From a virus (Duplodnaviria > Heunggongvirae > Uroviricota > Caudoviricetes), in IMG/VR virus record IMGVR_UViG_2711768070_000013, positions 1 through 4,297 of that record: 4,297 nt of DNA; one strand, written 5' to 3'. The translations under genes were made by a program, and so were the position numbers. The notes beneath the pieces were generated by a model, which was given only the letters and a program-made list of their open reading frames with translations, was not told the DNA's origin and ran no database searches. Shown one piece after another: positions 89 to 533 of this stretch; the stretch's first letter is position 1; each line of letters opens with the position of its first letter.

Positions 89-128
89 TAAAAAAAGCCA
101 GCGGCTGACCTGAAAGAAGACGCTGGCT
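89..128 (-). terminator. Leftward-facing intrinsic-terminator-like hairpin (8-bp stem, 17-nt loop, U-tract on the minus strand)
   Basis: Stem 96-103 AGCCAGCG pairs with 121-128 CGCTGGCT; A7 run at 90-96 on the + strand gives a U7-8 tract immediately 3' of the hairpin when read leftward. No T-tract follows it on the + strand. The long loop weakens it. Confidence 0.35.
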
Positions 129-193
129 AAAAGGCCTTATATGTTTGTAGAGACTTATTTTTCACAGACAGCAATGATGCCTGTCAATATATT
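89..193. repeat. Copy 1 of a diverged tandemly duplicated ~150-bp regulatory unit
   Basis: Ordered elements shared with copy 2: A7 tract then AGCCAG-arm hairpin (96-128), flank CTGGCTAARAAGG, CTTATAT (136-142), T-rich run, ACAGACAG (164-171), TGTCAA (182-187), ATATT (189-193). Confidence 0.55.
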
Positions 194-231
194 ATCAATA
201 TGCGGATTGTTTCAGTTACAGATGCTTTATT

Positions 232-278
232 AAGGAAAAAAACAGCCAGTACTGACTTTCCTCGGAGAAGTACTGGCT
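232..278 (-). terminator. Leftward-facing intrinsic-terminator-like hairpin (perfect 10-bp stem, 15-nt loop, U-tract on the minus strand)
   Basis: 244-253 AGCCAGTACT is the exact reverse complement of 269-278 AGTACTGGCT; A7 at 236-242 gives GUUUUUUU 3' of the stem on the minus strand. No T-tract on the + strand side. Confidence 0.4.
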
Positions 279-361
279 AAGAAGGATAGTTGGGTTTCAC
301 ATGATACTTATATCTGGCAGTACATTTTCTGACAGACAGTGATGGGTGTTGTCAAGATATT
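232..361. repeat. Copy 2 of the diverged tandemly duplicated regulatory unit
   Basis: Same element order as copy 1: A7 tract (236-242), hairpin AGCCAGTACT/AGTACTGGCT (244-278), CTTATAT (307-313), T-rich run, ACAGACAG (332-339), TGTCAA (351-356), ATATT (357-361). Core ~39 bp is roughly 70% identical between copies, with indels. Confidence 0.55.
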
Positions 362-452
362 GTGTCATTTATAACCTGAATCAGGGGGGAGCCGGAATGT
401 TATCTGGCATTTTTAGCAGAGCCTGAATGCCATAATCACGGCTCCCGGCGTT

Positions 453-489
453 GGCCGTCAGTGGGCGACACTGGCGGCTTTTTGTTTTC
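453..489 (+). terminator. Rho-independent terminator upstream of the lysis genes (tR'-like target of late antitermination)
   Basis: Stem 454-463 GCCGTCAGTG pairs with 469-478 CACTGGCGGC (10 bp, one G-U wobble), 5-nt loop GGCGA, then TTTTTGTTTTC at 479-489. Confidence 0.65.
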
Positions 490-533
490 CTTTACTTTCA
501 TTTTCTGTCGGCGGTGACGGAGACATACATCAG

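Follow-up and report, generated by a model that had tools for sequence, protein, structure and literature searches.

Adjacent paralogous sRNAs of the Hfq type are known from E. coli (OmrA/OmrB) and Pseudomonas (PrrF1/PrrF2), where the promoter and terminator ends are conserved and the middles have diverged; PrrH is the longer read-through species of the PrrF1/PrrF2 tandem pair. The locus described here, a probable PasA pair, is similar in its conserved ends, diverged middles and, as with PrrH, longer read-through species, but it is embedded in the late operon of a prophage and runs against it, and the downstream copy is only predicted to be expressed independently. PasA itself is an 85-nt sRNA of prophage PP2 of EPEC E2348/69 that depends on Hfq and was validated by Northern blot (Pearl Mizrahi et al. 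2021, PMC8550237). In NC_011601 it starts at 743499 and has its major end at 743415 on the minus strand, with the orientation given as '> < >' (PMC8550237, Table S6). The same work detected a second 3' end, and the dependence of the accumulation of the ~85-nt RNA on Hfq was shown for the E2348/69 copy only. PasA ranks among the best-connected sRNAs of the accessory genome in the Hfq interactome of EPEC; mRNAs of type III secretion and of bfp are among its targets. PasC, from prophage PP5 of E2348/69, is a member of the same family and is likewise located next to an esterase gene. In EHEC O157:H7 Sakai, EcOnc51 and EcOnc52 were reported as orphan Hfq-CRAC peaks of prophages Sp12 and Sp4, respectively (Tree et al. 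2014, PMC4104026, Table S2); they were never Northern-validated or named and were later listed just as 'homologues of PasA'. A 2026 preprint (Zhu, Shabalina and Storz, 10.64898/2026.05.13.724894), in which only BLAST-detectable PasA copies were examined, holds that Pas copies do not represent tandem duplicates. When full texts were searched for subsequent functional studies of PasA or EcOnc51/52, nothing was found beyond the papers cited here.

The analysed stretch of DNA (the window; positions 1 to 4,297 of the IMG/VR record IMGVR_UViG_2711768070_000013, 4,297 nucleotides) likely contains, at positions 89-380, a tandem pair of leftward prophage sRNA genes of the PasA/PasC family, with a sialate esterase gene on one side and S, the holin gene, on the other. 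The locus as such was already known, and the present analysis adds its homology, mapping, conservation and prevalence. The modest new point would be unit 1 as an unrecognised tandem paralogue; its own promoter, as well as the interplay of the locus with late transcription, we infer. The features of the locus are as follows.

1-88, plus strand: 3' end of a nanS-p / SASA-family sialate O-acetylesterase gene, TAA stop at 86-88
89-152, minus strand: unit 1, predicted sRNA of EcOnc51/52 type, ~64 nt, 5'-CUCUACAAACAUAUAAGGCCUUUUAGCCAGCGUCUUCUUUCAGGUCAGCCGCUGGCUUUUUUU, with the unit-1-specific sequence CUCUACAAACAUAUAAGGCC; terminator stem from 128 to 96, U7 from 96 to 90
158-187, minus strand: promoter-like core of unit 1; TTGACA from 187 to 182, 18-bp spacer, TGT from 166 to 164, GAAAAA from 163 to 158; start predicted near 152
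236-320, minus strand: unit 2, PasA-variant sRNA, 85 nt; terminator stem from 278 to 244, U7 from 242 to 236
87-320, minus strand: read-through isoform (minor PasA form, 236 nt in EPEC), from the PasA start past terminator 2 to terminator 1
326-355, minus strand: promoter-like core of unit 2; TTGACA from 355 to 350, 18-bp spacer, TGT from 334 to 332, CAGAAA from 331 to 326
380-492, plus strand: rightward structured segment, a long hairpin at ~386-447 followed by an intrinsic terminator just 5' of the holin gene
453-490, plus strand: rightward intrinsic terminator found by the terminator scan, stem 453-479 and T-run 480-490; the phage 434 record has a plus-strand terminator annotated here
534-740, plus strand: S, first of the lysis genes, encoding a class II (phage-21-type) pinholin (from the ORF list and the annotation of matching records, as for the next two)
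740-1237, plus strand: SAR endolysin gene, after S
1222-1671, plus strand: Rz gene, after the SAR endolysin gene

The first 88 nucleotides of the window were identical (88/88) to the ends of SASA-family esterase genes in the E. coli locus L002, the PP5 locus of E2348/69 and several phage contigs, with a single difference (87/88) from the esterase gene ends of phage 434 and E2348/69 PP2. Unit 2 thus shares the setting of the PasA/PasC family, the esterase-to-holin/lysozyme intergenic spacer on the opposite strand. In L002, which is 99.3% identical, 3.4 kb separate the end of the antiterminator gene Q from the stop codon of the esterase gene further downstream; Q, and therefore pR' as well, is thus more than 3 kb away on the upstream side. 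In phage 434 Q is likewise 3.4 kb upstream. A screen of the whole window on both strands with the Rfam covariance models (E <= 1) gave no match; the PasA/PasC family has no Rfam model.

Judged by alignment, unit 2 is a variant of PasA and corresponds to it base for base. It was identical to PasA of E2348/69 at 69 of 85 positions (81%) over the full length, on the same strand and at the same position, so that the homology covers at least 75% of the length, the criterion for PasA copies in the 2026 preprint. The published coordinates, strand and probe of PasA were transferred exactly onto unit 2, with the same ends: the 5' end falls on position 320, six bases past the -10-like hexamer, and the probe GCCAGCACTGACTTTCGGTGGAGAG matches 245-269 with five mismatches. 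The 3' end of unit 2 is a 10-bp stem followed by U7 (intrinsic terminator and Hfq site), and the stem is kept by compensatory changes. In both PasA and the window a second terminator follows downstream, and the minor end of PasA, giving the 236-nt form, falls on hairpin 1; the read-through region was identical to NC_011601 743499->743264 at 216 of 236 positions. The promoter-like core of unit 2 was 89-96% conserved in E. coli-type loci. The window copy differs from PasA by 16 substitutions, two of them inside the predicted seed, where GCCAGCACCU becomes GCCAGUACUU (8/10 identical, both changes being C-to-U transitions). The seed GCCAGCACCU was reported as conserved among PasA variants, which is not a formal criterion. 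For both seed changes the 3' arm of the stem carries a compensatory change, and with the help of G.U pairs GCCAGUACUU could still bind GGUGCUGG, the target motif from RIL-seq.

The sequence-only reading of the window had described two units sharing the same ordered elements, and a sequence check found each of these at its place in units 1 and 2, respectively.

90-96 and 236-242: A7
96-101 and 244-249: AGCCAG
123-128 and 273-278: CTGGCT
136-142 and 307-313: CTTATAT
164-171 and 332-339: ACAGACAG
182-187 and 350-355: TGTCAA (TTGACA on the minus strand)
189-193 and 357-361: ATATT

The period was 148 nt between the terminators and 168 nt between the promoter cores because the body of unit 2 is about 20 bases longer. 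Each unit was also said to end in a hairpin with a leftward U-tract, which holds: U7 follows both hairpins, and the arms are 91% complementary in hairpin 1 (96-106/118-128) and 100% complementary in hairpin 2 (244-253/269-278). A consensus terminator scan caught only an inner sub-stem of hairpin 1 (95-111) and missed hairpin 2 because the hairpin loops (11-15 nt) exceed the limit of the scan, and folding was used instead. In this check, which the earlier reading had proposed, both hairpin segments folded better than their shuffled counterparts (z -3.6 and -4.5). The terminator stems showed compensatory double changes at three positions. The further proposal that a short non-coding RNA, or two of them, is transcribed leftward from near the minus-strand TTGACA and ends at the hairpins agrees with published RNAs, as unit 2 corresponds to PasA, hairpin 1, the next one downstream of it, is the end of the 236-nt isoform and unit 1 carries the EcOnc51/52 peaks.

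The assignment of these peaks required a correction of coordinates. Those in PMC4104026 refer to an older Sakai assembly, not to Sakai v2, which was recognised from the absence of the EcOnc50 probe from its listed place. The offset was 0 at 1.18 Mb (EcOnc08 terminator) and +142 at 1.267 Mb (EcOnc50 probe), was compatible with +142 at 2.03 Mb and, on the assumption that EcOnc42 and EcOnc21 are counterparts, amounted to ~+138-142 at 2.92 Mb. With the offset applied, unit 1 is the location of both EcOnc52 (Sp4) and EcOnc51 (Sp12), which cover its terminator. A location of EcOnc51 on the 3' part of unit 2, obtained by taking the coordinates at face value in Sakai v2, was rejected on this ground. 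The boundaries of the two peaks differ by no more than 3 nt, both between the peaks and from the start predicted for unit 1 (1-3 nt at the peak start), the peak areas are nearly equal, and unit 1 was identical to EcOnc52 of Sp4 at 75 of 78 positions (96%). EPEC RIL-seq chimeras also end at the unit-1-homologous terminator (743267-743294).

It is slightly more probable than not that unit 1 is an independently transcribed, unnamed third paralogue of PasA and PasC, so that the commonest form of the locus would be a true tandem pair with a separate regulon for unit 1 and recombination between the hairpins would produce the single-unit alleles. A separate regulon would be expected of an independent gene since the body of unit 1 differs from that of PasA. 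The predicted RNA of unit 1 folds at -14.9 kcal/mol (z -2.4), with a 3' stem-loop and then U7, and an E. albertii variant repairs the internal mismatch of its stem. The promoter-like core of unit 1 is located at the position homologous to the PasA promoter and was 100% identical in E. coli copies. In the diverged two-unit loci it was the best-conserved segment, with 96% identity in L205 and 89% in L210 of E. albertii, against 71-84% in the neighbouring segments. The same core can also be read as a plus-strand promoter, CAGACA-N17-TATATT, and its conservation is therefore no proof that the minus-strand promoter is used.

A rather unlikely alternative is that only unit 2 is a gene and unit 1 is a decayed duplicate, of which nothing but the terminator still works, as a back-stop where PasA transcription reads through; the Hfq-bound RNA of unit 1 would then come from the 236-nt isoform, either as its 3' end or by processing. 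The authors of PMC8550237 treated the unit-1 region as part of PasA, which in their account has one start and two ends, and the -10 box of unit 1 is poor; the -10 boxes are in fact weak in both units (GAAAAA in unit 1, CAGAAA in unit 2) and are rescued solely by the TG extension. Since the edges of CRAC peaks need not equal RNA ends, the RNA of unit 1 could come wholly from PasA by read-through or processing. In Sakai Sp4 unit 2 is missing, as the locus is interrupted by IS629 at 24 bp upstream of the -35 of unit 1, but the unit-1 copies of Sp4 and Sp12 are identical, and this multi-mapping means that CRAC reads are not assignable to the copy without unit 2 and that Sp4 gives no proof. However, the read-through form is minor in EPEC, yet the Hfq peaks in Sakai are on unit 1 and none of the EcOnc peaks listed in PMC4104026 is on unit 2. 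Moreover, the 5' edges of the peaks coincide with the start predicted from the -35 of unit 1 itself, and the best-conserved part of the diverged loci is the promoter core, not just the terminator.

It is very improbable that the two units are not homologous and are alike only because each consists of a promoter and a terminator. The overall identity of the two RNAs is just 62%, and the E-values of the profile searches are modest. Four independent tests were nevertheless significant. The local alignment of one unit with the other scored 27 against 16.1 +/- 2.4 for shuffled sequences, a value reached by 2 of 1000 shuffles. An nhmmer profile of unit-2-type sequences matched unit 1 collinearly on the same strand with E = 6e-5, and with E = 5.5e-3 when PasC was left out of the profile. 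The covariance model R1, built from 11 PasA-type sequences, none of them from this window, PasC or unit 1, gave 105.9 bits (E = 8e-18) for unit 2 and 26.8 bits (E ~7e-4, model positions 1-86) for unit 1. The homology of unit 1 to the PasA/PasC family is thus weak but consistent and, as far as these comparisons indicate, spans the whole gene on the same strand. A 36-nt block (158-193 and 326-361) was 72% identical, and the shared blocks ACAGACAG, CTTATAT/TAAG and UUAGCCAG, which occur in the same order on the same strand, have no generic promoter or terminator meaning.

Natural recombinants that exchange parts between the units also speak for homology. PasC combines a unit-2 body with a terminator and flank of the unit-1 type (73% identity to unit 2 overall), and the locus L155 combines a unit-1 body with a PasC-type terminator. 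PasC loci differ from the window in having a single unit, which looks like a unit-2 body fused to the terminator at the unit-1 position, as might result if a locus with two units lost the DNA between its hairpins, or from the reverse event. In the 'class C' allele unit 2 abuts the esterase gene, and where unit 1 has its promoter core, alleles of a third type, class E, carry TTGACA-N16-TATAAA. Whether one or two units is the norm, a question raised by the earlier reading, was answered by related loci: two units were present in 70 of 122 phage-contig loci, the commonest arrangement. Among 5426 complete E. coli genomes, unit 1 was found at 2303 places in 677 (~12%), usually in several copies, and the unit-1/unit-2 junction at 2382 places; the genomes with the locus, about one in eight, were mostly EHEC and EPEC. 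A stand-alone unit 1 was rejected as a natural form, as the seven hits to a single-unit-1 pattern had other explanations. L205 and L210 are the diverged two-unit loci, in which the pattern missed unit 2; L126 has an IS629-type junction identical to that of Sakai Sp4; L191 has a pO26-plasmid-type esterase fragment alongside and L175 an IS-like end; and in L117 and L130 unannotated unrelated sequence lies alongside.

The hairpins could instead act on the plus-strand late mRNA, as stabilisers of the esterase 3' end or as RNase III sites, and their resemblance to leftward terminators would then be incidental. As plus-strand RNA they fold at -15.8 and -18.7 kcal/mol, and the first one abuts the esterase stop codon. 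There is little chance that this is so: on the plus strand the hairpins are followed by AAAAGG and AAGAAGG and not by a U-run, several G.U pairs of the natural variants are legal only in the minus-strand RNA and turn into A.C mismatches, the plus-strand reading scored only 11 and 9 bits with model R1, and leftward RNAs ending at both hairpins have already been detected.

The label 'late regulatory region', which the sequence-only reading gave to the spacer, was not upheld. The lambda-type late region (Q, pR', qut, tR' and 6S RNA; StxS in Stx phages) is similar in having a short terminated transcript upstream of the late genes and a rightward terminator, at 453-490 here, that Q-modified polymerase must pass. 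It lies directly downstream of Q, whereas the present locus has an esterase gene upstream, 3.4 kb with a 1.85-kb moron gene separate it from Q, and its mapped RNAs are on the wrong strand. At this distance from Q, one would expect neither a late promoter and its leader nor a site for Q loading. Within the late operon it is the spacer between the esterase and holin genes to which the RNAs are antisense, and not a late-promoter leader as had been suggested; of duplicated sites for binding the late antiterminator there is no indication. The rightward TTGTCA (349-354) and TATAAC (370-375) with a 15-bp spacer are present as described; this candidate and CAGACA-N17-GATATT, which was read from the sequence, are weak promoter candidates, the promoter scanner having listed just the unit-1 counterpart CAGACA-N17-TATATT. 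The rightward structured segment (380-492) folds at -50.4 kcal/mol (z -4.4) and was 95-100% conserved among loci with unit 2. The idea that the repeats are loading or binding elements for the Q antiterminator, or that their RNAs are antisense to a late-promoter leader, suits the general look of a promoter- and terminator-rich spacer before the lysis genes and the weak TTGTCA-N15-TATAAC, but is hardly credible given the esterase gene and the remote Q in both L002 and phage 434, the minus-strand origin of the experimentally mapped RNAs and the G.U pairs, which suit minus-strand RNA only.

For the tandem pair of sRNA genes, the following mode of action is proposed. Transcription of the PasA variant would start about 30 bp downstream of the perfect -35 TTGACA, at position 320; in the 2026 preprint the 5' end of PasA was read as a processing product and not as a start. 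RNA polymerase would mostly halt at the 10-bp hairpin and U7 (278-236), giving the 85-nt RNA, and a minority would read on to the hairpin and U7 at 128-90. Unit 1, as a diverged copy of the PasA gene with its own TTGACA and TG-extended -10-like box, would produce the ~64-nt RNA ending at the latter terminator. Hfq would bind the 3' hairpin and U-tract present on both RNAs, which in lysogens may act as Hfq-dependent trans base-pairing regulators of host and virulence mRNAs. As the sRNA genes would be embedded in the late operon and convergent with it, Q-driven rightward transcription through the locus may be expected to silence both by collision, and both RNAs should be fully complementary to the spacer of the late mRNA. 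Duplex prediction for both sRNAs with the esterase 3' end, the S leader and the R start gave energies no better than those of shuffled sequences.

If unit 1 is a second gene, the count and naming of Pas sRNAs and the assignment of EcOnc51/52 would change, a pasA deletion that leaves unit 1 in place may not be null, and there would be a simple recombination route from two-unit to PasC-type loci. Recombination between the near-identical terminator hairpins would then be the engine of the single-unit alleles (PasC, 'class C'), and an independently expressed tandem pair would contradict the current view that Pas copies arose solely through repeated phage acquisition. For annotation, the spacer before the lysis genes in these Stx-type prophages would be an sRNA locus with a rightward terminator and not a late promoter.

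No minus-strand ORF of at least 20 aa was found inside 89-152 or 236-320, and a type I toxin-antitoxin or small-protein gene was rejected, as neither predicted RNA contains an ORF of that size. A 23-aa minus-strand ORF at 297-368 starts upstream of the unit 2 promoter. The exact variant of the window is rare: a 131-nt junction query (window 170-300) retrieved five records at an identity of at least 99%.

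The window lies among the late genes of an E. coli prophage of the lambdoid, Stx-phage-like kind. Its bases 1-760 had matches of 95-99% identity in 672 complete E. coli genomes, in phage 434 and in many Stx1 phages. The features around the spacer were as follows.

Ending at 88: SASA-family carbohydrate (sialate O-acetyl) esterase gene nanS-p/yjhS, 1.85 kb (from every annotated match)
About 152 to 89, minus strand: unit 1, promoter-like core at 158-187, hairpin 1 with arms 96-106/118-128
320 to 236, minus strand: unit 2, promoter-like core at 326-355, hairpin 2 with arms 244-253/269-278
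380-492, plus strand: strong fold closed by an intrinsic terminator (453-490)
From 534: class II pinholin gene S, then SAR endolysin and Rz (from ORFs and annotated matches)

In a chromosomal locus 99.3% identical to the window (L002), the end of the antiterminator gene was found 3.4 kb upstream of the esterase stop codon, and the layout of phage 434 was alike. Because the esterase gene lies upstream and the antiterminator gene is 3.4 kb away, 89-533 is the esterase–holin spacer deep within the late operon and not the Q-pR' region, and the sequence-only reading was wrong to treat it as a late regulatory region with a late-promoter leader and Q-binding elements.

The same reading had described two diverged tandem units with leftward terminator-like hairpins, and every motif that it listed was found in place. 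Folding and homology tests confirmed this description as well. The hairpins folded better than shuffled sequences (z -3.6 and -4.5 for hairpins 1 and 2) and each was followed 3' by U7 on the minus strand, with no U-run after either on the plus strand. Curators of the phage 434 record had independently annotated both hairpins as minus-strand terminators and 453-490 as a plus-strand one. The two units shared a 36-nt block of 72% identity, and their local alignment score was matched by only 2 of 1000 shuffles. A profile built from unit-2-type sequences gave a collinear match to unit 1 with E = 6e-5 (5.5e-3 when PasC, an sRNA of the EPEC E2348/69 prophage PP5, was left out). With a covariance model trained on 11 PasA-type sequences, none from the window, minus-strand unit 2 scored 105.9 bits and minus-strand unit 1 scored 26.8 bits (E about 7e-4); the plus-strand hairpins reached only 9-11 bits. 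Judged by these comparisons, units 1 and 2 are homologous beyond chance.

The proposal of short leftward non-coding transcripts was the correct core idea and agrees with published RNAs; the locus had been described before, as PasA together with EcOnc51/52. PasA is an Hfq-stabilised, Northern-validated sRNA from RIL-seq of EPEC E2348/69 (PMC8550237, 2021), encoded on the minus strand between E2348C_0688 (esterase) and E2348C_0689 (holin). Its start is at 743499; the major form stops at 743415 (85 nt), and a minor form runs on to 743264 (236 nt) (PMC8550237). Alignment of the fetched E2348/69 locus placed PasA at 320 to 236 with 69 of 85 positions identical, and its minor end in the U-tract of hairpin 1, overlapping the esterase stop region. 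A TG-extended -10-like hexamer (TGT-CAGAAA) lies six bases before the published 5' end and 18 bp from a perfect TTGACA (355 to 350). From this sequence, the published 5' end is the place where a primary start would be expected; processing was assumed for it in a 2026 preprint (10.64898/2026.05.13.724894).

PasA accumulation is Hfq-dependent, with expression under virulence-inducing conditions. Among the 41 RNAs found ligated to it were T3SS and bfp mRNAs, as well as the esterase mRNA at its 3' end (PMC8550237). The esterase-mRNA target motif, CUGGUGCUGGA, was present at 56-66. Two seed bases are changed in the window variant of PasA, and pairing with GGUGCUGG would still be possible through G.U; duplex calculations for the sRNAs gave no added support for target pairing.

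Unit 1 corresponded to EcOnc51/52, Hfq-CRAC peaks in EHEC Sakai Sp12 and Sp4 (Tree et al. 2014) that were called EHEC homologues of PasA by Pearl Mizrahi et al. (PMC8550237). The 2014 coordinates refer to an older Sakai assembly, and their offset to NC_002695.2 was calibrated with features of known sequence. It was 0 at 1.18 Mb (EcOnc08 terminator) and +142 at 1.267 Mb (EcOnc50 probe). At 2.03 Mb a value of +142 also fitted, and at 2.92 Mb the estimate was about +138-142, provided that EcOnc42 is the EcOnc21 counterpart. Taken directly, Table S2 coordinates (Tree et al. 2014) misplace EcOnc RNAs beyond Sp4 on NC_002695.2, the +142 shift applying from 1.27 Mb on.

After correction, EcOnc52 (Sp4) and EcOnc51 (Sp12) were one sequence within 3 nt, comprising the unit-1 RNA from its predicted start (window-equivalent 150-153) through the terminator, although CRAC peak edges need not equal RNA ends. 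Window unit 1 was identical to it at 75 of 78 positions. The peak areas were nearly equal (1.03 and 1.09 million), and since the unit-1 copies are identical, reads are not assignable to Sp4 or Sp12. Sp4 lacks unit 2, as IS629 breaks the locus 24 bp upstream of the -35 of unit 1, and the 2014 list contains no EcOnc peak on a Sakai unit 2. EPEC RIL-seq chimeras whose 3' partner came from the unit-1 region ended at the same terminator; together with the Sakai peaks, they indicate that in two pathotypes Hfq is bound to an RNA whose 3' end lies at hairpin 1.

Unit 1, which the literature takes for a PasA tail, looks like a diverged tandem paralogue, probably with a promoter of its own, and this is what the analysis adds. 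According to the 2026 preprint, the Pas copies do not represent tandem duplicates (10.64898/2026.05.13.724894), an implicit denial of the paralogue reading. The unit 1 promoter core was the best-conserved segment in the two most diverged two-unit loci (96% in L205 and 89% in L210 from E. albertii NBRC 107761; neighbouring segments 71-84%). Such conservation fits a functional promoter, but the core can also be read as a plus-strand promoter, CAGACA-N17-TATATT, so the argument is not exclusive. Both 36-nt cores (158-193 and 326-361) contain a promoter-like sequence in each direction: the minus strand reads TTGACA-N18-TGn-(G/C)A(A/G)AAA and the plus strand CAGACA-N17-(T/G)ATATT. The two promoters would overlap fully, back to back, with starts about 48 bp apart.

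In the terminator stems, GCCAG/CUGGC was invariant and three inner positions carried compensatory double changes (C-G to U-A, A-U to G-C, and C-G to U-A or A-U). Several variants (PasC, plasmid copy, E. albertii) had G.U pairs; a plus-strand RNA would have A.C mismatches at these places, and this argues that the stems are maintained for the leftward RNA.

Comparison of 84 loci found via the holin gene and 122 found via the promoter core revealed five arrangements.

Arrangement 1: two units
Arrangement 2: a single PasC-type unit, with unit-2 body and unit-1-type terminator
Arrangement 3: unit 2 alone, directly next to the esterase gene
Arrangement 4: a third allele type, TTGACA-N16-TATAAA with a GCCAGCGCAGA hairpin
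Arrangement 5: a remnant hairpin arm only

Two-unit loci were the majority (70/122). Among 5426 complete E. coli genomes, 677 contained unit 1, at 2303 places in all; there were 2382 places with the unit-1/unit-2 junction and 2843 with the unit-2 body. About three quarters of PasA-type loci are therefore two-unit. Lone unit 1 copies were truncation products, left by the IS629 cut in Sp4 or found with esterase fragments in plasmids of the pO26 type. Some 100 such plasmid copies among the complete E. coli genomes carried an esterase 3' fragment and unit 1 only, 92-93% identical (L085/L086, 2414-2700), ending exactly at the hairpin 2 A-run before other, IS-rich sequence. One two-unit locus (L155, minus strand, ~826) joins a unit-1 body to a PasC-type terminator with the loop UCCUUCAGAGUGGGC, which makes the terminator of PasC an allelic form of that of unit 1. 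Crossing-over between the repeated A-run/AGCCAG...CTGGCT hairpins of a two-unit locus could have given rise to the single-unit forms, or the reverse may have happened.

In L210 (~1600-1900), the diverged two-unit cassette adjoins fliE/fliF, not the holin gene, and the esterase-like flank upstream shows no more than 44% identity; the sRNA pair seems to have persisted in a degraded element. Other leftward hairpins of the GCCAGC...GCTGGC-plus-U7 type, e.g. CACCGCCAGCGUCCAUUCCUGUCGCUGGCGGUUUUUUU, lay about 700 bp upstream of the holin gene in loci that lack the esterase gene (L042, L039, L046, L050, L071 and L078), and could be further family relatives in a different context.

We infer that both sRNA genes would be active in the lysogen, each ended by its own hairpin-U7, with terminator 2 being leaky. 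Q-modified rightward transcription across the spacer would collide with and silence both, and its transcript would be an RNA perfectly complementary to both sRNAs.

The 380-492 fold (-50.4 kcal/mol, z -4.4) contains a long hairpin at ~386-447, and its terminator lies 44 bp before S. The region was 95-100% conserved wherever unit 2 was present, except for a length-variable G-run (384-389). Among otherwise near-identical loci this run, at the 5' foot of the long hairpin, ranged in length between GGGG and GGGGGGGGG and also occurred as GGGGTTGG and GGGGAGG; it is a slippage-prone homopolymer inside a conserved structure. On the simplest reading, 380-492 would be a barrier that stops rightward transcription of the esterase or stx moron from entering the lysis genes unless it is antiterminated. 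The segment may instead form the 3' end of a separate rightward sRNA of about 120 nt, which would start near 368 and end at the 490 terminator.

Further downstream, at 4029-4158, after the HNH endonuclease gene (3573-3938) and before the terminase region begins, the sequence (A/C)ATGTTAAC(T)GG occurred five times, with copies in both orientations and a perfect palindrome (GCCAGTTAACA/TGTTAACTGGC) at 4029-4050; these look like terminase- or cos-binding repeats.
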